DNA of 64,000 bases from Acidobacteriota bacterium (GCA_021810625.1 JAJZIJ010000004.1:9569-73568); one strand, 5' to 3'; positions 6,360 through 42,277 are shown, numbered from the stretch's first letter. A program made the numbers and translations. The notes: generated by a model not told the origin, from the sequence alone.

Positions 6360-8270
6360 TTATGCGTCAGCGCCGACGGCAGCGGAGGAATCTTCTGGAT
6401 CGGTCAGCAAGATGTCCTCTTTGGGGAAAAAGATCATAAAAACAGTTCCCGACGGCGAAGCGGGAACGCCAGGCTGGGAGGCGCCTCCAGAAGAGACCGC
6501 AACGCGGCTGCGCACCCGCACCCTGCCCCGGTGTTTTTCGACAATCCCAGCGCTCACCCAGAGGCCCAGTCCGGTTCCGGTCAATTCCTTGGTGGTGAAG
6601 AACGGCTCGAAGATGTGCTGGCGCACCTCTTCGGTCATGCCGCAGCCGGTATCGGCAATCACGATGCGAACTCCGGCAACGCGATCTTTGCGCCAGGCTC
6701 TGGATTTGCGAACGGAGATCATCAGACGTCCGCCGCGCGACATGGCATCAATGGCATTGCCGACCAGGTTGGCAAAGAATTGGCGCATCTCGCCGCTAAA
6801 GCAGAAGAGTTCGGCAGTGTCGTCATAGCGGCGGACAACTTCAATTTGTGCGGCGTACAGGCGTCCGCGATAGAGCGTCAACACGGAATCGAGTACCTCG
6901 CAAAGCCGGATCAGCGTCGGCTGCGTGGACTGGCGATAGAAACGCAGCGTCTGTTGCGTGATCTGTGAGACGCGCGCCAGTTCATGCTGCGCCATCTCCG
7001 CATAATTTGCTGCTTCGGCATCCAGCGAACGCTGGTTTTGCAGCAGGTAGAGCAGGTTGGTGACAGCCTCCAGCGGGTTGTTGATTTCATGCGCAATGGA
7101 GGCAGCCAGACGTCCGGTGGCCGCCAGCTTTTCGCTTCTGCGAAGGGCCTCTTCCGACTTTTTGCGCTGCGTCGTGTCCATGACCACCGTGCCCACCCAG
7201 CGAATCTGATCCGTGCCCGTGCGGACGGGATAAAAACTCCGCAATCGCGTGCAAAAAGAACCGGGAATGCCAGGAATTTCTCCGCTCCACTCCAGGTCGC
7301 GCACTGGCTCCCCGGTGATAAAAACCTGCTGGATGATGCTGGCCAGCACGCGCGATTCTTCCGTGGGGAATACATCCATAATGGGGCGGCTCAAATGGCG
7401 GCTGATGGGCAGGTGATTCATGTCGGCCATAAACTGATTGACGCGAACATAGCGCAGATTGCGATCGAAGAACGCGAATCCAATGGGGGCATTGGCCAGC
7501 ATGGAATCCAGCAGCGCCAGCGTGTCGTTGAGTCCGGCGCGTTGCTCGTGCAGGGCGGCCACCATTGAGTTAAACGCATGGGTCAGAACCCCGGCTTCAT
7601 TGATGGATGTGGTCTGGATGGGGAAGACATTTTGAATCTCTGGATTGCGAATGAGCAGTTGCGTTCCGCGCAGCAGGCCGCGCAAAGGCTGCGTAATGGA
7701 GCGCGCCAGCAGCATGGAAACAATCGCATTGGCGGCAATGGCCAACAGACCGAAGAGCAGCGCGGAGTTGAGAAACTCCCGAAGGGATTTCTCGTCCTCG
7801 GTCATGTCGGGGACGATCCAGGCCAGCGCGATGGGCGTTCCATCAACCAGCACCGGAGCCACGACCTCTGGCGTCGCGTGTTCACCAAGAAAAACAGCCT
7901 GATATGGCGGATGTAACTGCGCCCTTTCCAAAGGAGAAAGCGGAAGATAGCTGCCAGGGCCATTGCGATCCCCATACGCCAGCACATTGCCGGCAAGATC
8001 CGTGATGCGCGCGGAGCGGATGGTCGGCGAGGCGGGCATGGCGGCCATAATGGCTTGAAGGCCCATCATATGCTGGTCGGCCATCTCCTCCGCAGAGGCG
8101 TCTGCCATCACATGCACCTGGTAGATCAGCCGCTGTTCTGTGCGGGCGCGCGCCTGCGCGTCCTGTTGGCGGTAGATATATCCAACAAAGATGCCGACCA
8201 GCAGGCACTGTAGCAGGAGCGTGCCCGCGATGAGTTGACCTCGAATGGTACTGGGAACAAAACGCGGCAT
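6360..8270 (-). CDS. sensor histidine kinase (2 TM, HAMP, PAS, HisKA, HATPase_c)
   Basis: H-box HEINNPLEAV, N-box LVGNAIDAM, G-boxes DTGCGM and GTGLGL. I placed the start at MPRFVPS (ATG ending at 8270) because the longer ORF to 8435 overlaps ypdA. No response regulator is adjacent. Confidence 0.85.
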   Translation of the reverse strand: MPRFVPSTIRGQLIAGTLLLQCLLVGIFVGYIYRQQDAQARARTEQRLIYQVHVMADASAEEMADQHMMGLQAIMAAMPASPTIRSARITDLAGNVLAYGDRNGPGSYLPLSPLERAQLHPPYQAVFLGEHATPEVVAPVLVDGTPIALAWIVPDMTEDEKSLREFLNSALLFGLLAIAANAIVSMLLARSITQPLRGLLRGTQLLIRNPEIQNVFPIQTTSINEAGVLTHAFNSMVAALHEQRAGLNDTLALLDSMLANAPIGFAFFDRNLRYVRVNQFMADMNHLPISRHLSRPIMDVFPTEESRVLASIIQQVFITGEPVRDLEWSGEIPGIPGSFCTRLRSFYPVRTGTDQIRWVGTVVMDTTQRKKSEEALRRSEKLAATGRLAASIAHEINNPLEAVTNLLYLLQNQRSLDAEAANYAEMAQHELARVSQITQQTLRFYRQSTQPTLIRLCEVLDSVLTLYRGRLYAAQIEVVRRYDDTAELFCFSGEMRQFFANLVGNAIDAMSRGGRLMISVRKSRAWRKDRVAGVRIVIADTGCGMTEEVRQHIFEPFFTTKELTGTGLGLWVSAGIVEKHRGRVRVRSRVAVSSGGASQPGVPASPSGTVFMIFFPKEDILLTDPEDSSAAVGADA

Positions 8271-9369: not shown

Positions 9370-9432
9370 GCTCTTATTTAAGCAGAGCGGGGATGGATGT
9401 GGATTTACGCGCAATCACAAAAACCCTGCGCG

Positions 9433-9469
9433 CCCCACATGCGCCGCGTTCTTCGCGGCGCATGTGGGG
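9433..9469. repeat. REP-A palindromic element copy 1
   Basis: CCCCACATGCGCCGCG-TTCTT-CGCGGCGCATGTGGGG, a perfect 16-bp stem. It lies just downstream of the Kelch gene stop; on the minus strand a T-run follows 9 nt later. Confidence 0.9.
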
Positions 9470-9487
9470 CGGGTCTTGCGTTCTACA

Positions 9488-11035
9488 CTACGGCTGGTAA
9501 CGCCACAGGTCGTTGAGATCGCCCTGCGCCGTGGTCGAGTCTGGGCCGTAGCCCCCAAAGAGCCAGAGATTGCCGCTGCCATCCATCCAACCGACGGATC
9601 CGCTCCGGCCTCCGGGAACATTGCTGGCAGCAGGGGTTCCCAGCGTGCCGTAAACACCGGATTGGCCGCTGTTTGCGCCCAGCGTGTTGCTGCCGCTCAT
9701 CCACGTCCATTCCTTGCTCGTGGGATTAAACACCCAGAGGTCGTTGAGATAGCCCTGCGCCCCGGTCGAATCGACACCGGAACCTCCAAAGAGCCAGAGA
9801 TTGCCGCTGCCATCTATCCAACTGACGGATCCGCCCCGGCCTCCGGGAACATTGCTGGCGGCGGCAGTGCCCAGCGTGCCGTAAACACCGGATTGGCCGC
9901 CGTTTGCGCCCAGCGTGCTGCTGCCGCTCATCCATGTCCATTCCTTGCTCGTGGGATTAAACACCCAGAGGTCGTTGAGAAGGCCCTGCGCCAGAAGGCC
10001 CCCCGCCCCGGTCGAGTCTGGGCCGAAGCCCCCAAAGAGCCAGAGATTGCCACTGCCGTCTGTCCAACTGACAGAACCATATCTGCCTCCGGGAACATTG
10101 CTGGCGGCAGGGCTACCCAGCATGCCGTAAACACTGGGCTGACCACCGTGCGAACCCAGCGTGCTGCTGCCGCTCATCCATGTCCATTCCTTGCTCGTGG
10201 GATTAAACACCCAGAGGTCGTTGAGATAGCCCGGTGTCCCCGTCGAGTCTTGGCCGTAGCCTCCAAAGAGCCAGAGATTGCCGCTGCCATCCATCCAACC
10301 GACGGATTCGCCCCGGCCTCCGGGAACATTGCTGGCAGCAGGGGTTCCCAGCATGCCGTAAACACCGGGCTGACCACCGTGCGAACCCAGCGTGCTGCTG
10401 CCGCTCATCCATGTCCATTCCTTGCTCGTGGGATTGAACACCCACAGGTCGTTGAGATTGCCCTGCGCCCCGGCGATCGAGTCAAAGCCCCCAAAGAGCC
10501 AGAGATTGCCGCTGCCATCTATCCAACTGACGGATCCGCCCCGGCCTCCGGGAACATTGCTGGCAGCAGGGGTTCCCAGCGTGCCGTAAACACCGGATTG
10601 GCCGCCGTTTGCGCCCAGCGTGCTGCTGCCGCTCATCCATGTCCATTCCTTGCTCGTGGGATTAAACACCCAGAGGTCGTTGAGATAGCCCTGCGCCCCG
10701 GTCGAGTCAAAGCCGTAGCCCCCAAAGAGCCAGAGATTGCCACTGCCATCCCTCCAACTGACGGATCCGGCACGGCCTCCGGGAACATTGCCGACAGCCG
10801 GGCTGCCCAGCGTACCGTAAACACCGGGTTGGCCGCCGTTTGCGCCCACCGTGTTGCTGCCGCTCATCCATGTCCACGGTTTGGCGGCTCCGGGCGTGGA
10901 ACCTGCGCTCCCGCCACAGGCGGTGAGAAACAAAGGAATGGAGAGAGCGAAGATCGCAGGTAGGCTCAACAGCGCGCGCAGCAACCCTTGAAGGAACGTG
11001 TAAAGCAGGGGACAAGCAGGAGTTGCTGTTTTCAT
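9488..11035 (-). CDS. Kelch-repeat beta-propeller lipoprotein
   Basis: 515 aa. Signal peptide with lipobox (FLTACGG), then about 7 units of about 77-82 aa (NDLWVFNPTSKEWTWMSGSSTLG...GSGNLWLFGG) with the Kelch signature. Confidence 0.85.
   Translation of the reverse strand: MKTATPACPLLYTFLQGLLRALLSLPAIFALSIPLFLTACGGSAGSTPGAAKPWTWMSGSNTVGANGGQPGVYGTLGSPAVGNVPGGRAGSVSWRDGSGNLWLFGGYGFDSTGAQGYLNDLWVFNPTSKEWTWMSGSSTLGANGGQSGVYGTLGTPAASNVPGGRGGSVSWIDGSGNLWLFGGFDSIAGAQGNLNDLWVFNPTSKEWTWMSGSSTLGSHGGQPGVYGMLGTPAASNVPGGRGESVGWMDGSGNLWLFGGYGQDSTGTPGYLNDLWVFNPTSKEWTWMSGSSTLGSHGGQPSVYGMLGSPAASNVPGGRYGSVSWTDGSGNLWLFGGFGPDSTGAGGLLAQGLLNDLWVFNPTSKEWTWMSGSSTLGANGGQSGVYGTLGTAAASNVPGGRGGSVSWIDGSGNLWLFGGSGVDSTGAQGYLNDLWVFNPTSKEWTWMSGSNTLGANSGQSGVYGTLGTPAASNVPGGRSGSVGWMDGSGNLWLFGGYGPDSTTAQGDLNDLWRYQP
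9540..10900. repeat. intragenic tandem repeats (period about 228-246 bp) encoding the Kelch blades
   Basis: The motif TGCCGCTCATCCA[T/C]GTCCATTCCTTGCTCGTGGGATT recurs at 9691, 9922, 10168, 10399 and 10627, with a variant at 10858. Confidence 0.9.
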
Positions 11036-11122
11036 AGACTCTCCGCGTCACTTGGAAATGATATTGTATGCAACCGACAGACTGCATACGTATACCACAA
11101 GCCACGCCTTTGAATCTATCCC

Positions 11123-11248
11123 TCAAACCATCTTCAGCAGAATTGACTGCGCGGCGCGCAGCGGATTGGCCGCCTGCGTGATCGGTCTGCCGACGACCAG
11201 ATAGCTGGCTCCAGCAGCGATGGCCGCTCCGGGCGCAGGGTTGCTCAT
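11123..11248 (-). pseudogene. chimeric scar: ypdA start codon plus 5 codons fused in frame to the last ~35 codons of pyrF
   Basis: My translation is MSNPAPGAAIAAGASYLVVGRPITQAANPLRAAQSILLKMV*. Compare the ypdA N-terminus MSNPAPAAAP and the pyrF C-terminus PGAAITAGASYLVVGRPITQAANPLRAAQSILLEM. Confidence 0.8.
11129..11235. repeat. duplicated fragment of the pyrF 3' coding end (copy of 15824-15930)
   Basis: Hand alignment gives 107 bp with 5 mismatches. Confidence 0.9.
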
Positions 11249-11293
11249 GCTCTTAATTTAAGCAGAGCGGAGATGGATGTGGATTTGCGCGCA
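11231..11293. repeat. duplicated fragment of the ypdA start plus upstream leader (copy of 9352-9413)
   Basis: Hand alignment gives about 62 bp with 2 mismatches and 1 single-base indel. It abuts and overlaps the pyrF fragment at the shared GGGCG. Confidence 0.9.
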
Positions 11294-11341
11294 CAACTTT
11301 TCACGCACAACCTCTTGAAAGATCACAGGCACCGCACTCCC

Positions 11342-13558
11342 TTACGGGTGGCTCGTTGTGGTTCGGAGGACGGCCACGGAACCTGCGGGTAGATTCACGG
11401 TTGCCAGCGTATGACCGTTATTCTGTGTCACGGGAACAGACGCGCCTGTGATTACGTCTGTCACCGCGTATGCGCCTCTAAAACTGATGACTGCCTGCCC
11501 GGTATTTCCCCAGTTGGAGAGGATGGCACCCGCGCCATCCGGCAGTGTCATGCCGCGGAAAAGTATCTTTCTGGAACCTTGCAGCATGGAGACTTTCTGG
11601 CTGGCCACTTCCGCAAGAGCGGGCGCTACAATCCACTGCTGCACGATCGGATTCAATCTTCTCGCGTAAGCCAGCGTGACCGCCGATTCAAAATAGTAGA
11701 CCTGCCCCATGCCAAAGGTATGTTTCACTTCAAAAGGCTTGCCACTTTTTGTTCGCATTACAACTTCCGCGCCCTTCATCTCCAGTGGGAGTTTCCAGAG
11801 TTCTCCGCCCTGCTCATTCTGGCTGGTCACGGAATACGGATTTGCCGCTTGCACGGGATAGATATCCGAGGCCTCCACGCCGAAAAGATCGGTCAAGCCT
11901 CCTGGGACGGTGGGGCGAATCTCTCCCGTGCCGTTCTTCCATGCTGTCAGCCCATCGGCCCAGAGCGTTCCTCCCTGGCTCACATAGGTTTTCAGCGCAG
12001 CGAGCGCCTTGTCGTCCAGCGCATAGGAGTCTGGAATGTAGAGAACTTTGAAGTTTTGCAACGCTCCCTGTTTCAGTTGGTCGAGATCGACGAACTCTGT
12101 CGGAATATGGGCACGGTGCAGCGCGAGATAACAGCCCCGCAGCGAATCCGCGACTTCGTCTTCTCGATGCTGGGTGCGACCATCGAGGCTGATAAGAATC
12201 TCCGCCTCGCGGTTGTACAGGATGGCGACTTTTGCCTCCTGTGGCTGCGCCTTAGCCAGCCAGGGATTTTTCCGCAAGGTGTCTGCCACAGCCTTGACTG
12301 CGGGGATGCGATTGGAGGGTATTCCGTCCAGACTGGCCAAGCTCCACTCCCCGGCCTCCGTCCCGCCCACTCTTGGATTCCAAAGCCAGAAGATGACAGC
12401 GCGGCTGCCTGCGCCGTAGGAGTCCCATATCCAGCGCGTCAGATCGCCCGGCGTTGTGTATAGAGGAAATTTGCCCGTGAACATTGTCGGGCCACTCTGC
12501 AATTCCGTCACCCAGAATGGCTTGCGCGGCGCAACTTCGCTGGCATCCGCGATCTGATCAAGACGGTAGGAGTAGAGTTCTCCATAATCACTCTCCGGTG
12601 TCGCGGGGGGAAAGACCCAGGCTGCGTGCATGGAAACGCCAAGAATATCTGGAACTTGTTTTTCTTTCCATATATCCTGGCCAACGGCATCGCCGATGGG
12701 GCTGGTCACATTAAAATGCGTCGGGTGGTTGGGATCAATTGCTTCCACCTGCTGCTTTACCCAGATCAGTTGCTGAATCAGGTTATCGACCTTGAAATTA
12801 TCCCAGTCGATCAGCGCGTGGTAATCCGTCCAATAGGATGTCTGTTGTAGCGAGGTTATCTTTACGTCGGAGAATTTTTTCAATGGCTGAAACCAATGCT
12901 GGTTCAGCGTATTCACGGTGCCATACTTGGCTTGTAGCCAGTCGCCAAAGGCATGAAACGTGGTCGGCTCCGTGTCGTACTTGGTCGGCTCATTCATCAA
13001 CAGCCAAACGCCCTGGGCAGGATTGTTCTTATATCTCCCCACAACTTTTTTTAGATAGATCGCAGATGCGGCGCGATTCGCGGGGGCATTCAAATTGACG
13101 AGATTGTGATAGAACGGCGTTTTATCGGCCCAGCCGGGTGGATCTTCTGGACACAAGGTGGCGACGATTTTTATGCCGTTTTTCGCGGCTGCGTTGTAGA
13201 TCCAGTCATATCCTTCAAAATTCCAAACTCCCGGAACCCGTTCGACATCATCCCAAATAACGAATATCCGAACCAGCGTCAGTCCCGTTGCGTGCATCAA
13301 CTGAAATTGCTTGTCTACGGAGGCCTGGGTATCCGCGCGATTCAGGAAAAACTCAGAGCCAATGCGAAGCTGTTCTGTAAGTTCATTGAGTTTTGCCTGA
13401 CGAGCCACATTCGTGGGCGCAGTGTTTTGGGCGCTCGCCAGTACCCCGAAAAAGATGACCGCGAGCAGCACGCACTGTTGCAACCTGTGTCGGGAAATCC
13501 CTACATGCGACTGCGTTGCTTGATATCGAAATTCCAACACTTTTTGTTGCTGGTACAT
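11342..13558 (-). CDS. glycoside hydrolase family 42 beta-galactosidase, with predicted signal peptide
   Basis: TIM-barrel region with LLMNEPT (acid/base) and WVTELQSG (nucleophile)-like motifs, followed by a GH42M-like domain (KVAILYNREAE). Start at MYQQQK (ATG ending at 13558). Hydrophobic N-terminal segment LLAVIFFGVLASAQ. Confidence 0.8.
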   Translation of the reverse strand: MYQQQKVLEFRYQATQSHVGISRHRLQQCVLLAVIFFGVLASAQNTAPTNVARQAKLNELTEQLRIGSEFFLNRADTQASVDKQFQLMHATGLTLVRIFVIWDDVERVPGVWNFEGYDWIYNAAAKNGIKIVATLCPEDPPGWADKTPFYHNLVNLNAPANRAASAIYLKKVVGRYKNNPAQGVWLLMNEPTKYDTEPTTFHAFGDWLQAKYGTVNTLNQHWFQPLKKFSDVKITSLQQTSYWTDYHALIDWDNFKVDNLIQQLIWVKQQVEAIDPNHPTHFNVTSPIGDAVGQDIWKEKQVPDILGVSMHAAWVFPPATPESDYGELYSYRLDQIADASEVAPRKPFWVTELQSGPTMFTGKFPLYTTPGDLTRWIWDSYGAGSRAVIFWLWNPRVGGTEAGEWSLASLDGIPSNRIPAVKAVADTLRKNPWLAKAQPQEAKVAILYNREAEILISLDGRTQHREDEVADSLRGCYLALHRAHIPTEFVDLDQLKQGALQNFKVLYIPDSYALDDKALAALKTYVSQGGTLWADGLTAWKNGTGEIRPTVPGGLTDLFGVEASDIYPVQAANPYSVTSQNEQGGELWKLPLEMKGAEVVMRTKSGKPFEVKHTFGMGQVYYFESAVTLAYARRLNPIVQQWIVAPALAEVASQKVSMLQGSRKILFRGMTLPDGAGAILSNWGNTGQAVISFRGAYAVTDVITGASVPVTQNNGHTLATVNLPAGSVAVLRTTTSHP

Positions 13559-13660
13559 AGTTTGCTTCCCACCCGTGGTTTTGTAGCTCGTGAAGAAATT
13601 CGGAGAGAAATCACAGCTCCCTCCACTTCGTTCTCTGTCGTGAACCCCGCTTAGGATAGC

Positions 13661-13775
13661 CCCCCTGGGGTTCCCCGGCAACCTTAGACTCGCTCACCGC
13701 GCTAGTTCTTGCGCGCGTTCTCCATTTCCAGCAGAATTGACTGTGCGGCGCACAGCGGATTGGCCGCCTACGTGA
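13661..13775. repeat. duplicated fragment of the pyrF 3' end plus 33 bp downstream (copy of 15764-15877)
   Basis: About 113 bp at roughly 90% identity by hand alignment. REP-A follows immediately. Confidence 0.85.
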
Positions 13776-13785
13776 ACCCTATGCG

Positions 13786-13822
13786 CCCCACATACGCCGC
13801 GTTCTTCGCGGCGCATGTGGGG
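13786..13822. repeat. REP-A palindromic element copy 2
   Basis: CCCCACATACGCCGCG-TTCTT-CGCGGCGCATGTGGGG. It shares the 5' flank AACCCT..GCG with copy 1. Confidence 0.9.
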
Positions 13823-13875
13823 CGGATTCCGAGATTCTCAAGTCTCTAAAAATCGGAACCTAGAGTACCCGGCCT

Positions 13876-14583
13876 TCAAAATCCGAAATCGATGATGTCG
13901 CCACATTTCCGACATTGTGCACTTCCATACATTCCCGCTATGTATTCGAAGAGCTGCCCTTCGCTCATATCATCCGTATCCCACTCAATAGACTCCAGAG
14001 AATTGACTGCCTGACAGGATGAACACTCACGCGGCATATTCCCATCGCCACCAAATTCTTCGTCCATTTTGGTTTGCATCCTTGCTGGATATAGCAGGGT
14101 ACCGCTGATAAGATTCTGAAAAAGTCGATGGGTGTGTGACACGTCGGATCGACAAGCTGCCTTAATTTTGTCATCACTTAATTCGTTCATCTTCCGGCCA
14201 TCGGTGTGTTTCTTCTCGCCAAAATTGCAATTTACAGCCACATTCAGGCTCACTCGAAACCCCGCCTTCGCGCTCATGATTTCGTGCATATCGATATGCT
14301 GGCCCTTGCGGGGTACACGGCCTTTCAGTCCATAGTGTTTTCTGAGAACCAAAAGATCAAAACACTTGCCGTTGAAACTGACAACCTCATCCGCAGACTG
14401 CAATAGCCTTATCAATTTGGTTGCGTTGCGCTGAGTGAAATACTTGTACTCTTGGCGCGATTCATCGAAGATACACGCCACGCGCATCTTTGGCGCATGC
14501 TTTGTTCTTGACTTTGTCGTCGTAGCCCTTCTGAACGCTTCTGAGAATGGTACGGTTTCAATGTCAAACACAATTCGTTTCAT
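13876..14583 (-). CDS. DEDD-type (RNase H-like fold) 3'-5' exonuclease with C-terminal 4-Cys zinc ribbon
   Basis: 235 aa from MKRIVFDIET. ExoI FDIET (D7, E9), ExoII SFNGKCFDLLVL (N71, D76), ExoIII-like CRSDVSHTH (D147, H150). CSSC...CRKC (C187/C190/C224/C227). AT-richer than its neighbours. Confidence 0.6.
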   Translation of the reverse strand: MKRIVFDIETVPFSEAFRRATTTKSRTKHAPKMRVACIFDESRQEYKYFTQRNATKLIRLLQSADEVVSFNGKCFDLLVLRKHYGLKGRVPRKGQHIDMHEIMSAKAGFRVSLNVAVNCNFGEKKHTDGRKMNELSDDKIKAACRSDVSHTHRLFQNLISGTLLYPARMQTKMDEEFGGDGNMPRECSSCQAVNSLESIEWDTDDMSEGQLFEYIAGMYGSAQCRKCGDIIDFGF

Positions 14584-14686
14584 GCAGCATACCTCCACGA
14601 GATTTATGATCCGGCCCAAAACAAAAATAGCAAAAGAGACTGGCAGGATATTCACGGAAGAATGTCACCTGTAAAATTAGAGACGA

Positions 14687-15628
14687 ATGATGACCCCGAA
14701 ACAACTTGGAATTGAACTGCGGCATCGCGGCTATGACACCACTGAACGGAAACTGCGGGACTGGCGAGATAAGGGATTGCTGCCGCCGCTGATGTGCTGC
14801 GGGCGAGGTCGTGGTTCAGGCGTGCGGCATTACTGGAAGGATGCAGGGGTTATAGATCAAGCCATAACCGTTCATGATTTGCTTTCCAGACGTGCGCGCT
14901 CCGAAGGCGCACTTTTGGGAACGTGGTTTGCTGGTTATGCGATGGATGTAGAGAAAGTTCGGAAAGCATGGCTTTCGTCGGTGGATCGCATAAAAAAACG
15001 AGTATTCAGAAATGCTTCTTCAAAGGAACAACGAGAGGATAGTCTTAGCGACTTGTCCCGCGATCTTGCCAAGAAGATGGCTCCTGTTGTCAAGAAGATG
15101 GCTCCTGACACTGATCTCGATTGGGAAAAGTTGGAGGCGCTCTTATCGGAGATATTGAACGCATATTTCGATTCGTCCTCCCCTATCTCTATTGATGATC
15201 AGGTTGTCGATACAGCGCGAAAGATTTTTGACAGGAAAGCCAGCACTTTGGAAGGATCGGAGCTTGTGACCATAGCGGGTTCAGAAAAGATACTCAAATT
15301 TGTACAGAAGAATCTGTCTCTGGATGCCATGCGGCGGTTGATTTTATCAGCAACGGTGGGGGAATTTGAGGTAGCGCATCGGCGTTGGCAATCCGCAATC
15401 CGAATCATCGGGTTATGGTGTAGTGCTGAAATTGACAGAGCGGAAAATCCAGCGGAATTGGTGCGGGAAGGAAGGCTGCTGTTGGGTGTCTTTGGTGCTC
15501 CGTGTATTTTCGCGCTACTGCGCCTTGGAAAAGCCGAAAAAGGGCCGGAGGTAGACTCCTGGCTTGATAGGATCGAGTTGTTTGTGAGAAATCAGCCCAA
15601 TGTCTGGGGATTACAAAACCCCACATGA
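14687..15628 (+). CDS. hypothetical protein with N-terminal HTH-like (MerR/excisionase-style) segment and helical body
   Basis: 313 aa, divergent from the exonuclease gene. The N-terminus (TPKQLGIELRHRGYDTTERKLRDWRDKGLLPP) resembles a DNA-binding HTH. Contains an internal KKMAPVVKKMAPD duplication. No family recognised. Confidence 0.45.
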   Translation: MMTPKQLGIELRHRGYDTTERKLRDWRDKGLLPPLMCCGRGRGSGVRHYWKDAGVIDQAITVHDLLSRRARSEGALLGTWFAGYAMDVEKVRKAWLSSVDRIKKRVFRNASSKEQREDSLSDLSRDLAKKMAPVVKKMAPDTDLDWEKLEALLSEILNAYFDSSSPISIDDQVVDTARKIFDRKASTLEGSELVTIAGSEKILKFVQKNLSLDAMRRLILSATVGEFEVAHRRWQSAIRIIGLWCSAEIDRAENPAELVREGRLLLGVFGAPCIFALLRLGKAEKGPEVDSWLDRIELFVRNQPNVWGLQNPT

Positions 15629-15796
15629 GCCGCAAAGACCGCAGCGCATGTAGGGCACCTGACATGTCAAATGGAACTCCAGAGAATAATGGCGGAGAAT
15701 ATGAAGCGAAGTTTCTCTGGATTCTTCTCTTCGTCCGCTGCGGCGAACTCCGCCCAGAATGATCCCACTGGGGTTCCCCGGCAACCTTAGACTCAC

Positions 15797-16582
15797 TCAC
15801 CGCGCCGACTTCTGCGCGCTCTCCATCTCCAGCAGAATTGACTGCGCGGCGCGCAGCGGATTGGCCGCCTGCGTGATCGGTCTGCCGACGACCAGATAGC
15901 TGGCTCCGGCAGTGATGGCTGCGCCGGGCGTGGCCAGACGTTTTTGATCCTGCGCTGCGCTACCTGCCGGACGAATTCCCGGCGCTACCAGCAGCGGCTT
16001 GTTCCCCAAATTCTGGCGGAGCATGGCCACCTCTTCCGGGGAGCAGACCAGCCCCGCCACGCCGCAGGCCATCGCCATCCTGCCCAGCCGCAGGACTTGT
16101 TCGGCAGGAGATTGAGCAACTCCGATGGCCGCCAGTTCCGCCGCATCCATGCTGGTCAGCACGGTGACAGCCAGCAGTTGTGGGGGATTTCCCCCCTGCG
16201 CGGCAATCTCCGATGCCGCCTCCACCGCTGCGCGCAGCATCGCCGGGCCGCCTGCGGCGTGGAGCGTCAGCAGGGAAGCTCCCGCCTGCGCCGCCGAACG
16301 CACCGCTCCAGCGACCGTGTTGGGAATGTCGTGGAGCTTGAGATCGAGAAAGATGGAGAAGCCGCGCCCCTTCAACTCGGCGACGATGGGGTTTCCAGCG
16401 GCCAGATAGAGTTCCAGCCCAACCTTGACCCAGCGGCAACTTCCGGCCAGTTGGTCAGCCAGCGCCAGCGCTTCAGCGGCGGAGGGGAAATCCAGCGCGA
16501 CGATCAGGGAATCACTCGGCGAGCGACCCCCGGCTGGGCGCAGGGAGGCATCGAAGGTTTCGGAGGGTTTGGGGACACTCAT
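15797..16582 (-). CDS. pyrF: orotidine 5'-phosphate decarboxylase
   Basis: LIVALDF, VKVGLELY, IFLDLKLHDIPNTV and YLVVGRPI motifs. Start at MSVPKP (ATG ending at 16582); the longer ORF upstream looks non-coding. Confidence 0.9.
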   Translation of the reverse strand: MSVPKPSETFDASLRPAGGRSPSDSLIVALDFPSAAEALALADQLAGSCRWVKVGLELYLAAGNPIVAELKGRGFSIFLDLKLHDIPNTVAGAVRSAAQAGASLLTLHAAGGPAMLRAAVEAASEIAAQGGNPPQLLAVTVLTSMDAAELAAIGVAQSPAEQVLRLGRMAMACGVAGLVCSPEEVAMLRQNLGNKPLLVAPGIRPAGSAAQDQKRLATPGAAITAGASYLVVGRPITQAANPLRAAQSILLEMESAQKSAR

Positions 16583-18377: not shown

Positions 18378-18393
18378 AGCCGGGTTGGGAGAT

Positions 18394-18537
18394 ATGAACG
18401 TACCCGGATGGAGGTTGCACCCGCTGAAGGGAAAACTCACGGGCCGTTGGTCGGTGAATGTGGATGGGAATTGGCGATTGACCTTTGCCTTCGACAGGCC
18501 AGATGCCATTCTCGTGGACTATCAGGATTATCATTAG
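18394..18537 (+). pseudogene. higB: truncated HigB-type (RelE/ParE superfamily) toxin remnant, C-terminal half only
   Basis: 47 codons, translated by hand: MNVPGWRLHPLKGKLTGRWSVNVDGNWRLTFAFDRPDAILVDYQDYH*. This matches only the C-terminal half of ~92-aa HigB killers. The region that should encode the N-terminal half is occupied by the thiD 3' end. Confidence 0.65.
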
Positions 18538-18547
18538 GAGCAAATCT

Positions 18548-18826
18548 ATGCGCATGTACAACCCAGCCCATCCCGGAGAGGTTTTACGGGAGCAGATTGG
18601 CACAATGTCGGTGACAAGGTTCGCCGCGCATCTTGGCGTGTCTCGTGTCACGCTCTCGCGATTGTTAAACGGCAATGCAGGGATTTCGGCACCAATGGCG
18701 CTGAAATTATCGGAGGCGCTGGGGACATCTCCAGAATTGTGGCTCAATATGCAGACTCAGTTTGATTTGTGGAATGCCTCGCGAGAGAAGCGAAAAAAAG
18801 TCTCGCGTCTGCGCCTTGCCGCGTGA
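18548..18826 (+). CDS. higA: HigA-type antitoxin (XRE-family HTH)
   Basis: 92 aa from MRMYNPAHPGEVLRE. HTH segment FAAHLGVSRVTLSRLLNG and the typical LWLNMQTQFDLW tail. Confidence 0.85.
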   Translation: MRMYNPAHPGEVLREQIGTMSVTRFAAHLGVSRVTLSRLLNGNAGISAPMALKLSEALGTSPELWLNMQTQFDLWNASREKRKKVSRLRLAA

Positions 18827-19891: not shown

Positions 19892-21277
19892 TCATCGGTC
19901 GGCGATGTTCATCTCCATACGGGTGTCTTTGGGAAATTCCACGTTGTGGCCGCGTAGGATCCAGCGCTGCGTGACGGATTTTCCCAGCGCGTAGTAGGCC
20001 AATCCCTCAACAGCCAGCGGATTGACGTAGATGGCGGAAACAACGTTTGCCGCGAGTCCGAAACCATTGCTGTACTCCAGACTTGTTCCCTGGCCGGAGG
20101 CTGGGTCAAAGGTGGAAACTCCTGCCACGGTGCCGAGCGCCAGCGGAGCCAGATATTTCCCCTGGTCGGAGTTGGCCTTCGCGCCGCCCTCAGAATCGAC
20201 AGCGATGTTCTCTCCTTTCTGGCCTTCGACGGCGGCCATCTGGCTATGTACCCGCTCCATTGTTCCCGTCGGCAACTGCACCTGACGGAAGGTGAAGCGC
20301 AGGATGCCGTTTCGCCCAAAGCTGCGGGCAGGTTTGGATTGTTGTACCGCGCCGACCAGTCGCGTTCCCGTGGGCAGCAAAACATGCTGGTGGGAGGCAT
20401 CCATGTAGGGCTGGGTCAGGACGGCCTCCACGGGCGTGCCGATTTTGCTGGTGGCGGAGCTGATGCCCGTAGTCAGTCGAGCCTCAATCGTGCCCGCCGG
20501 AATATGTCCGTTGGGCGGCGTGATGGGAAGCGGCTTGGTCGCCTTGGAGTCGGGCAGGGTCAACGGCGCGGTCAGTTCGACATCGAACTGCGTCCCCGAC
20601 CAGATGTCCTGGGGATGGTAGGGAAGCTGGTTATAGAGAAAGCGCAGCGCCCACTCCGCCTTGTGGTGATGTTGGTGGATATGCAGCATACTTTTGACGC
20701 TCTGGATTTTTGCATGGATGGGGGCGTAAATGCGCTGCCAGAGCGAGGGTTTTTTCTTTTGCGCGGCCATGTGAACCACGCCTGCCGTGCGTTCAATGGC
20801 CTTGCTGTTGAGCGGAACGCGGGTGCCATTGGGCAACTGGATGGAGTTGAAGGCCAGTTCCGGTGTCTTGAGCGGAGTTACATCTCCATTGAGCAAGGCC
20901 CAGGTGCGCGTACTCTTGTGAACCGGAGCAAGATGCACAATCTTGCCGTAGATGGGTGTGTGGGCCGGCAGAAGCACATGGTCGGAGATGTAGACCGGAT
21001 CAAGCAAATATCCCGCCACCGGAGCATTGAGTCGCATCCGGTATCGATGATCCACCTGAACGCGAAGAGGCAGGCCTGCGGGCAACGTTGCGATGGGAGC
21101 GGATTTTGTGGGCGGCATCCGGGGTGTGGGTGTTGGCGCGGGCGTTGGCGAGGAAGTGGGCGGGAGAGAAAGAACAGGCGTGGCCCGCTGCAAGGCGGAG
21201 AGCGTAGTTGCGCTGATCCACAGGCAGGCAAAGACAACCGCGACCTTGGATGGTAGGTGGCAAAACAAGTGGCGCAT
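19892..21277 (-). CDS. hypothetical exported protein with two VirB10/TrbI-like beta-barrel-type segments
   Basis: Signal peptide (from MRHLFC) and a Pro/Thr-rich linker. Two segments fit the pattern [LI]PAG-x-[IL]...LLP-x-[GH]T-x-[LI]-x-G, resembling the VirB10/TrbI C-terminal domain. This is only an impression. Confidence 0.45.
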   Translation of the reverse strand: MRHLFCHLPSKVAVVFACLWISATTLSALQRATPVLSLPPTSSPTPAPTPTPRMPPTKSAPIATLPAGLPLRVQVDHRYRMRLNAPVAGYLLDPVYISDHVLLPAHTPIYGKIVHLAPVHKSTRTWALLNGDVTPLKTPELAFNSIQLPNGTRVPLNSKAIERTAGVVHMAAQKKKPSLWQRIYAPIHAKIQSVKSMLHIHQHHHKAEWALRFLYNQLPYHPQDIWSGTQFDVELTAPLTLPDSKATKPLPITPPNGHIPAGTIEARLTTGISSATSKIGTPVEAVLTQPYMDASHQHVLLPTGTRLVGAVQQSKPARSFGRNGILRFTFRQVQLPTGTMERVHSQMAAVEGQKGENIAVDSEGGAKANSDQGKYLAPLALGTVAGVSTFDPASGQGTSLEYSNGFGLAANVVSAIYVNPLAVEGLAYYALGKSVTQRWILRGHNVEFPKDTRMEMNIADR

Positions 21278-21462
21278 ACCTCTCGAAAGAAGCTGAATCC
21301 AAAAATTTGGAGTCAATCAGATGCAGGAACCAGCGCGTGTTGGTTGGATGAAGGCAAGCAGGCGACAGGTTTCCTGCTTCATTTAGACGGCTGGGAGTGG
21401 AATCCGTCTACGCGGATCCACGGCGATGCGTGAAAATTGCCCCGGAGCAAATGGCGGCTGGA

Positions 21463-42194: not shown

Positions 42195-42230
42195 CCCCAC
42201 ATGCGCCGCGTTTTTTGCGGCGCATGTGGG
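42195..42230. repeat. REP-A palindromic element copy 3
   Basis: CCCCACATGCGCCGCG-TTTTT-TGCGGCGCATGTGGG. Confidence 0.85.
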
Positions 42231-42277
42231 AGAGTCGTGGAATCGTTTCCGTTTTGAGGATATACAGTCAGGAGTTT

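Follow-up and report, generated by a model that had tools for sequence, protein, structure and literature searches.

In a 64,000-nucleotide (nt) stretch of DNA from a soil acidobacterium (Acidobacteriota bacterium, GCA_021810625.1 JAJZIJ010000004.1:9569-73568; the whole stretch is referred to as the window), two divergent open reading frames (ORFs) were found that encode a predicted exonuclease of 235 amino acids (aa) and a 313-aa putative DNA-binding protein, here called ORF-B. The exonuclease gene (13876-14583, minus strand) starts with MKRIVFDIET and is preceded by a GGAGG ribosome-binding site 8 nt 5' of its start (CCTCC on the plus strand, 14592-14596), the ORF-B gene occupies 14687-15628 on the plus strand, and the spacer between the starts at 14583 and 14687 measures 103 bp (14584-14686). 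The GC content is 0.47-0.50 over 13800-15600, compared to 0.60-0.67 in pyrF on the right and 0.62-0.63 in a Kelch-repeat gene further to the left, which upholds the low-GC, divergent two-gene island described in a first-pass annotation made from the sequence alone. Because the adjoining 5' part of a GH42 gene on the left (12600-13600) also has a GC content of about 0.50, the contrast is sharp on the right side only. As that annotation had stated, no integrase, helicase or polymerase lies alongside the pair. To get more insight into this arrangement, we combined profile searches, structure prediction and a comparison of related loci.

The 235-aa protein is predicted to be a DEDD-type 3'-5' exonuclease resembling those of family-B DNA polymerases (PolB), whose third motif is atypical and whose tail forms a zinc ribbon, because its Pfam and PHROG matches, its conserved residues, its modelled structure and an invariant alanine at the position of the usual tyrosine or histidine together lead to this assignment. 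In Pfam it matched RNase_H_2 (PF13482) with 29.8 bits (E 6.9e-7; cut-off 22 bits) and DNA_pol_B_exo2 (PF10108) with 23.9 bits, just under the 24-bit cut-off, and among the PHROGs it matched phrog_403, 'DNA polymerase exonuclease subunit' (E 8e-9). Homologues numbered 60, and conservation was computed on an alignment of 36, in all of which D7, E9, N71, G72, D76, H96, D98, S146 and D147 are invariant. The Exo I motif FDIET, carrying D7 and E9, lies on the first strand (E3-10) of the AlphaFold2 model; the Exo II motif SFNGKCFD holds N71, G72 and D76 next to F75, which is at least 90% conserved; and the Exo III-like motif SDVSH holds D147. This third motif lacks both the canonical Tyr (Y-x3-D, DEDDy) and the canonical His (H-x4-D, DEDDh), position -4 being the invariant Ala143 and position -5 variable. 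Judged by its conservation, the invariant H96-x-D98 between Exo II and Exo III may serve as a substitute general base. The RNase H fold covers residues ~1-160 and the CxxC...CxxC zinc-ribbon domain ~185-235, with ribbon cysteines C187, C190, C224 and C227 (CSSC and CRKC) conserved in at least 90% of the 36 homologues; this tail probably helps to hold nucleic acid.

A search of the PDB with the exonuclease model (predicted local distance difference test, pLDDT, 88.9) by Foldseek gave 86 matches at E<=1e-3, the best being exonuclease domains of family-B and T7 polymerases, NrnC and a TREX1 homologue (probability 1.0; template modelling score, normalised by the query, 0.42-0.50). Pfam, PHROG, homologue conservation and Foldseek thus agree with the earlier call of a DEDD exonuclease with a zinc ribbon, and all motifs quoted for it (FDIET, FNGKCFD, SDVSH, CSSC, CRKC) are present on invariant or near-invariant columns. 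Stand-alone PolB-related 3'-5' exonucleases (PF13482/PF10108) form clusters F.10-F.23 of the RNase H-like superfamily (PMC3985635), with which the window enzyme shares the DEDD RNase H-like fold, the DxE of Exo I, the NxxxFD of Exo II, a final Asp on a long C-terminal helix and polymerase proofreading domains as structural neighbours; it differs from them in Ala143 at the Tyr/His position and in the invariant H96-x-D98. By sequence, the nearest solved relative is MrfB (8UN9), a weak match of the exonuclease profile with E 0.21 over 59 positions. MrfB/YprB of Bacillus subtilis is a DEDDh repair exonuclease (PMC11194089) and has a tetratricopeptide repeat region, whereas the window enzyme has the CxxC...CxxC C-terminal ribbon. 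Unlike in the MrfAB pair, no MrfA-type (DUF1998) helicase was found within the island or its flanks.

ORF-B belongs to no family in Pfam, NCBIfam, PADLOC or PHROGs; Pfam MerR_1 reached E 0.11 with ORF-B itself and 1e-4 at best among 52 relatives, of which it matched three. A word-indexed search returned six relatives only, and phmmer against 1.84 billion cluster representatives returned 420 matches at E<=1e-3 (215 at E<=1e-10), mostly of 300-350 aa, so that the family size of about 420 counts clusters at 50% identity. The AlphaFold2 model, based on an alignment of the 52 relatives (pLDDT 93.4; predicted template modelling score 0.88), has an N-terminal helix-turn-helix (HTH; H4-13, H20-28) and a wing hairpin (b36-39/b46-50), followed by about 12 helices. 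The winged HTH spans residues ~1-55 and conservation extends to ~85, with W26, R27, K29-P33, the G-x-G-x-G wing, W50 and G83 as conserved positions; the helical body is poorly conserved. Because conservation is concentrated at the N-terminus, this pattern would suit a protein that binds DNA and also has a domain for structure or sensing, rather than an enzyme. A known fold for the whole of ORF-B was rejected: Foldseek with the entire model found no match at E<0.5 in PDB or BFVD, a profile search of PDB sequences yielded designed helical repeats only, and local alignments of the N-terminus led to a phage protein with a MerR-type HTH (probability 0.97, root-mean-square deviation 3.0, 80 columns), CueR and NmlR. 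In its predicted structure, ORF-B is therefore a MerR-like winged HTH joined to an all-helical body that fits no recognised family, as the first reading of the sequence had proposed. Part of its coding sequence (15066-15107) is a tandem duplication of 21 nt, with two 95% identical copies of TTGCCAAGAAGATGGCTCCTG. The protein is thereby lengthened by seven residues (...KKMAPVVKKMAPD...) within a helix of the variable body, and all five aligned homologues lack this insertion.

When the divergent spacers of related loci (numbered L001 onwards) were aligned, two conserved blocks appeared. The first, GAATGTCACCTGTAAAAT (14660-14677, plus strand), ends 9 nt ahead of the ORF-B ATG and consists of two direct half-sites, TGTmAnn and TGTAAAn, at 7-bp spacing, including an extended -10-like TGTAAAAT. 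The pattern AATGTMASYTGTAAA occurs exactly once, on the plus strand just upstream of ORF-B, in 25 ORF-B loci whatever the partner, and has no occurrence in exonuclease-only and pyrF-only loci; variants of the motif are found at L012, L049, L055 and L059-L062, and in distant ORF-B members it reads AATGTAAGCTGTAAAC, so that in one form or another it precedes every ORF-B gene. The second block, TAGCAA (14628-14633; TTGCTA on the exonuclease strand), lies about 45 nt upstream of the exonuclease start and is near-invariant over loci in which ORF-B is paired with exonuclease, HNH, ParB or DUF2130 partners. A consensus scan of the spacer detected no canonical sigma-70 -35/-10 pair or terminator above shuffle expectation. 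Judged from these conserved blocks, the spacer would consist of back-to-back promoters and an ORF-B operator, with the boxes TGTCACCTGTAAAAT as putative binding sites. The HNH-paired modules of L042, L044-L048 and L051 have a further element, the perfect palindrome AGACCAGGGTGGTCT, which begins after the TTGCTA block, ends before the ribosome-binding site of the HNH gene and is ~70-85 nt away from ORF-B on its upstream side; exonuclease-paired modules lack this palindrome, whose role could be that of another operator or of a hairpin in the leader.

The divergent exonuclease/ORF-B pair, which the first-pass annotation had put forward as a candidate system, turned out to be conserved in five independent lineages, with spacers of 97-106 bp and ORF-B proteins 42-55% identical. 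Both proteins are 100% identical in the window and in identical contigs of metagenome-assembled genomes (MAGs). Identities to the window proteins are 55% for ORF-B and 78% for the exonuclease at L011 (over the 82 residues ahead of the contig end), 46% and 60% at L049, where both genes have decayed, 45% and 58% at L059, where the exonuclease is frameshifted, and 42% and 62% at L060-62, on an 83.6-kb contig. Elsewhere the gene divergent from ORF-B encodes a 166-aa Cys-rich protein matching phrog_5200 'HNH endonuclease' (E 4e-18; at least eight loci), a ParB_N protein (L008, L055), a DUF2130 protein accompanied by a NucS_C neighbour (L012) or a 357-aa protein with weak zinc-ribbon and HNH-like matches only (L053). 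A divergent gene is present at all ORF-B loci with readable upstream sequence, and it is of nuclease type except in one locus group. In a neighbour-joining tree of ORF-B, the HNH-paired members form a single clade inside an exonuclease-paired grade and the ParB-paired clade falls outside; since the partner type follows the tree, the pairs appear to be stably inherited and the nuclease to be rarely replaced. In the wider family, then, the constant part is ORF-B with its promoter region and the nuclease is interchangeable. Of the pair as a self-standing unit, as it was first presented, the recurrence as a pair holds, but the exonuclease is often solitary and the constant element is ORF-B with the promoter motif.

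Neighbours of the ORF-B relatives comprise an MmeI-type restriction-modification enzyme, Fic, an AAA-Mrr nuclease, Nmad2, DUF6650 and a NucS_C protein, as well as RelB/YafQ and Gp49/HTH_37 pairs, a TrwC relaxase and a Y1 transposase, so that relatives do lie among defence and mobile-element genes, a setting that had been suggested for them. At L060-62 the pair is 1.6 kb away from the 915-aa TrwC relaxase, with the Gp49/HTH_37 toxin-antitoxin pair and the Y1 transposase close by. The NucS_C neighbour matched PDC-S02 of PADLOC (E 1e-17), and the ParB_N partners matched PD-Lambda-5_A (E 6e-7), the latter over the N-terminal ParB_N domain only; compared with anti-phage candidates of one nuclease or two genes that use ParB-like, HNH or PD-(D/E)xK effectors, such as PD-Lambda-5 and PDC-S02, the partners and neighbours of ORF-B relatives match through shared nuclease domains only. 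A named defence system was rejected for the window pair, as neither PADLOC nor NCBIfam matched either protein; the suspicion that the pair fits no named system has so far stood. In the literature nothing relevant was found on PF13482/PF10108 in defence, on MerR with a nuclease in anti-phage systems or on DEDD with a zinc ribbon.

Several of the compared loci carry features of their own. Directly after the solitary Terracidiphilus exonuclease (L001/L002, 6789-7450) lies an MNT/HepT-type nucleotidyltransferase toxin-antitoxin pair, its HepT split into two ORFs in L002. L049 contains a tRNA-Arg(CCT) gene (7357-7433, minus strand) and, 125 bp off, a perfect 35-nt duplicate of its 5' part (7524-7558), ~1.7 kb from the decayed exonuclease/ORF-B pair. 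Just 3' of a distant ORF-B homologue, L052 (1772-2290) and L053 (2836-3354) encode a 172-aa Cas1-domain fragment (PF01867, E 1.6e-14), followed by a gene for an AIDA-repeat protein.

In the window, the pair is bracketed by a direct repeat of ~165 nt (13621-13784 versus 15724-15885, 77-86% identical). The left copy, on the minus strand, is a pseudo 3' end of pyrF of ~23 codons with its own stop plus ~60 nt of post-pyrF sequence, and the right copy, also on the minus strand, is the authentic pyrF 3' end (15797-15885) plus its downstream tail (15724-15796); before their stop codons these ends translate to ...AANPLCAAQSILLEMENARKN and ...AANPLRAAQSILLEMESAQKSAR, respectively. According to the gene calls of identical contigs, pyrF itself occupies 15797-16582 on the minus strand. 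At the left cassette edge lies a repetitive extragenic palindrome (REP; 13786-13822, CCCCACATrCGCCGCG-N5-reverse complement), and at the right edge a degenerate copy (15619-15655) with two mismatches to the core per half, overlapping the ORF-B stop codon. The left boundary had been recognised correctly as a REP and a duplicate of the pyrF end; the supposed repeat debris on the right (~15700-15762) is indeed repeat-derived but is really part of the downstream tail of the right direct-repeat copy. This REP-like palindrome family (CCCCACATGCGCCGCG-N5-reverse complement) occupies intergenic positions, with further copies at 9433-9469 and 42195-42231, and its core has nine matches in the window compared to 2.0 expected from shuffles, none of 100 shuffles reaching nine. 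A transposon with terminal inverted repeats was also considered, as 38-nt inverted arms (13785-13822 and 15619-15656) are 84% complementary, and was rejected, since the arms are copies of a host REP element found elsewhere in the window. Direct repeats derived from the 3' end of a target gene, as expected of integrase-mediated islands, are present; inside them there is no integrase or recombinase, as they enclose two genes only, neither matching a recombinase family. At the other loci, flanking direct or inverted repeats around the modules were searched for and none was found.

Comparison with a close relative (L056, pyrF 90% identical) places the cassette in a larger insert. There, a pyridine-nucleotide-disulfide oxidoreductase gene follows pyrF at 38 bp; in the window the two genes are ~6.4 kb apart (9415-15796), and the insert contains the exonuclease/ORF-B pair along with the Kelch and GH42 genes. 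The pyrF 3' end is present in three copies (15797-15885, 13682-13784 and 11128-11235), the third of which runs, with 6 nt shared, into 53 bp copied from the start of the oxidoreductase gene (11230-11282); this junction (11128-11282) looks like the form expected of a tandem duplication. Because the pair is one part of a ~6.4-kb insert with three pyrF-end copies and a duplication junction, it sits in a composite insertion hotspot downstream of pyrF and not in a simple island. The 2-kb island of the first-pass annotation thus remains an acquired segment, but only as one component of this composite insertion. Speculatively, the ~165-nt repeats could be explained if the cassette arrived by single-crossover integration of a circular fragment whose pyrF end had diverged.

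We tentatively favour, at somewhat short of an even chance, that the two genes are functionally coupled as a regulator and a regulated nuclease in a horizontally acquired two-gene module. In such a module, the 235-aa protein would act as an autonomous Mg-dependent 3'-5' exonuclease of PolB-proofreading type, an activity that is predicted. The MerR-like winged helix of ORF-B would bind the TGTmA..TGTAAA boxes in the 103-bp spacer and thereby control both its own promoter and that of the nuclease, while the poorly conserved helical body would serve in oligomerisation or in sensing a signal. Production of the nuclease would then occur only on cue, possibly in response to invading DNA, DNA damage or element transfer, and in the sister modules a swapped nuclease (HNH, ParB-like or DUF2130) would take its place as the regulated effector. 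Such a layout, to be expected where a nuclease under regulation acts as effector against phages or other mobile DNA, points to a putative role in defence. A stronger version, which we regard as possible but unlikely, is that ORF-B represents a new, widespread family (~420 clusters) of modular two-gene conflict systems, the window pair belonging, with an exonuclease as its effector, to a new anti-phage or anti-plasmid system whose effectors are interchangeable; here the helical domain would detect a signal of invasion or damage and then either switch on or directly recruit the divergently encoded nuclease.

Several observations weigh against functional coupling and a defence role. Exonuclease homologues 44-68% identical to the window enzyme have no ORF-B within 6 kb, a hidden Markov model search included, in six genomes (Terracidiphilus, Gallionella, Polaromonas, Nitrospirae, Bradyrhizobium and Rhodomicrobium MAGs), a profile search having confirmed an intact exonuclease without ORF-B at L001, L005 and L019-L022; a common alternative neighbour of these solitary enzymes was sought and none was found. 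Since solitary exonucleases are up to 68% identical, the enzyme needs no partner and the link is perhaps regulatory at most. Two of the five paired loci have a frameshifted exonuclease, resulting from decay or assembly error, and the genomic contexts sampled amount to about 20 independent loci, a small sample. Classical MerR operators are dyads inside a 19-20 bp -35/-10 spacer; no such dyad was found in the divergent spacer, where the conserved motif resembles direct half-sites, and this motif could merely be a strong promoter travelling with ORF-B. Neither protein matched any family of PADLOC-DB v2.0.0 at E<=1, and a phage or plasmid origin was rejected, as no relatives were found in IMG/VR (pattern scan), INPHARED phages or PLSDB plasmids (tblastn).

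Alternatively, the pair might serve a mobile element, a reading to which we assign a low probability. ORF-B would then be a winged-helix protein of the excisionase/directionality or relaxosome-accessory type, assembling at direct repeats, while processing of DNA ends in transfer, establishment or element competition would fall to the nuclease, and the window copy would be a remnant cassette mobilised in trans. The ~165-nt direct repeats of a gene 3' end around the window cassette resemble those of integrated elements, the conserved motif looks like tandem direct half-sites, the pair at L060-62 adjoins the TrwC relaxase, toxin-antitoxin pair and Y1 transposase described above, and oligomeric winged-helix directionality factors have a precedent in RdfS (PMC11963761). 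ORF-B is, however, three to four times the size of known directionality factors, no integrase, relaxase or origin-of-transfer-like feature was found in the window, L008 or L011, and the lack of flanking repeats at the other loci and of a PLSDB plasmid match for either protein does not fit this explanation.

Equally improbable in our view is a DNA-repair module unrelated to defence, in which the exonuclease would be a damage-inducible accessory 3'-5' enzyme like MrfB/YprB, controlled by a MerR-like regulator that responds to stress. Sensing stress is typical of MerR-family proteins, the exonuclease shares Pfam family PF13482 with MrfB besides its weak profile match to 8UN9, and solitary exonuclease homologues occur among housekeeping genes. 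The missing MrfA-type helicase argues against such a module, as does a distribution that is patchy, island-borne and of low GC, and the HNH and ParB-like replacement partners stand beside restriction-modification and toxin-antitoxin genes, which is unusual for repair.

It is more doubtful still that the genes lack any functional link, being two accessory genes captured on one fragment by mere co-transfer. Conservation of the orientation and of the 97-106 bp spacer at 42-55% ORF-B identity, over five lineages in differing contexts, is hard to reconcile with this, and so is the divergent gene at every readable ORF-B locus, of nuclease type in all but one locus group; the many exonuclease homologues without ORF-B, the many ORF-B homologues without the exonuclease and the frameshifts in two paired loci are what co-transfer would leave behind. 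A toxin-antitoxin or addiction pair, with a toxic exonuclease that ORF-B neutralises while repressing the locus, is very improbable: although the unit is compact and lies on acquired DNA, HTH antitoxins are common and toxin-antitoxin pairs adjoin several relatives, the addiction module considered by the first-pass annotation is weakened because the exonuclease lives intact and alone in at least six genomes and because the partners of ORF-B belong to four unrelated nuclease folds, a diversity that fits poorly with specific protein-protein neutralisation, and the genes are moreover divergent instead of co-transcribed and without a PADLOC match.

Returning to ORF-B as a regulator of a nuclease, its closest functional parallels would be BrxR (PMC9122601) and CapW (PMC9122588), WYL-domain transcription factors encoded beside varied defence systems (see also PMC9122589). 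Like these, ORF-B combines an HTH with a separate sensor-like domain, stands beside unrelated effectors and has its own conserved operator/promoter, its regulatory role being putative. Unlike BrxR and CapW, it has a MerR-like DNA-binding fold instead of a winged HTH plus WYL, its C-terminal domain consists of helices only and has no counterpart in PDB or BFVD, and its partner is a single nuclease gene and not a multi-gene system. BldC is a MerR-like winged helix binding direct repeats (PMC5859096), and RdfS is an oligomeric winged-helix directionality factor. With BldC, excisionases and RdfS, ORF-B shares an N-terminal HTH with a MerR/Xis-type beta-hairpin wing and upstream tandem TGTAA-type half-sites, to which binding is putative; BldC and RdfS measure ~70-100 aa, whereas the ORF-B family measures 300-350 aa and has a large helical body. 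Classical MerR proteins (~130-150 aa) have a coiled-coil dimerisation helix and an effector pocket, in contrast to the 313 aa and ~12 further helices of ORF-B, and no whole-protein structural match of ORF-B to any MerR regulator was found.

Should the coupling prove functional, ORF-B would constitute a new kind of sensor/regulator for nuclease effectors, and would join the short list (BrxR, CapW) that explains how toxic defence nucleases stay silent. It would also provide a first functional handle on the patchily distributed stand-alone PolB-like exonucleases with a zinc ribbon. The DNA signature AATGTmAnnTGTAAA could then help in finding more cargo genes in metagenomes. In case of co-transfer only, there would still be a clear picture of a hotspot for insertions that lies downstream of pyrF in Acidobacteriaceae.

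A few other features of the window lie outside the pair. The region 18385-18826, 2.7 kb from the exonuclease/ORF-B pair, contains a truncated HigB-like toxin ORF (50 aa, PF05015, E 4e-9) followed by a HigA-like HTH_3 protein (92 aa), which by sequence looks like a decayed toxin-antitoxin pair. About 4 kb to the right of pyrF lies a gene of the TrbI/VirB10 family (~19892-21316, minus strand; PF03743, from the annotation of identical contigs). For the Kelch-repeat gene (9488-11035), the gene calls in the otherwise near-identical MAG contigs (L013, L014, L015) give lengths of 285, 203 and 515 aa, which probably reflects repeat collapse in the assemblies or real variation in repeat copy number.

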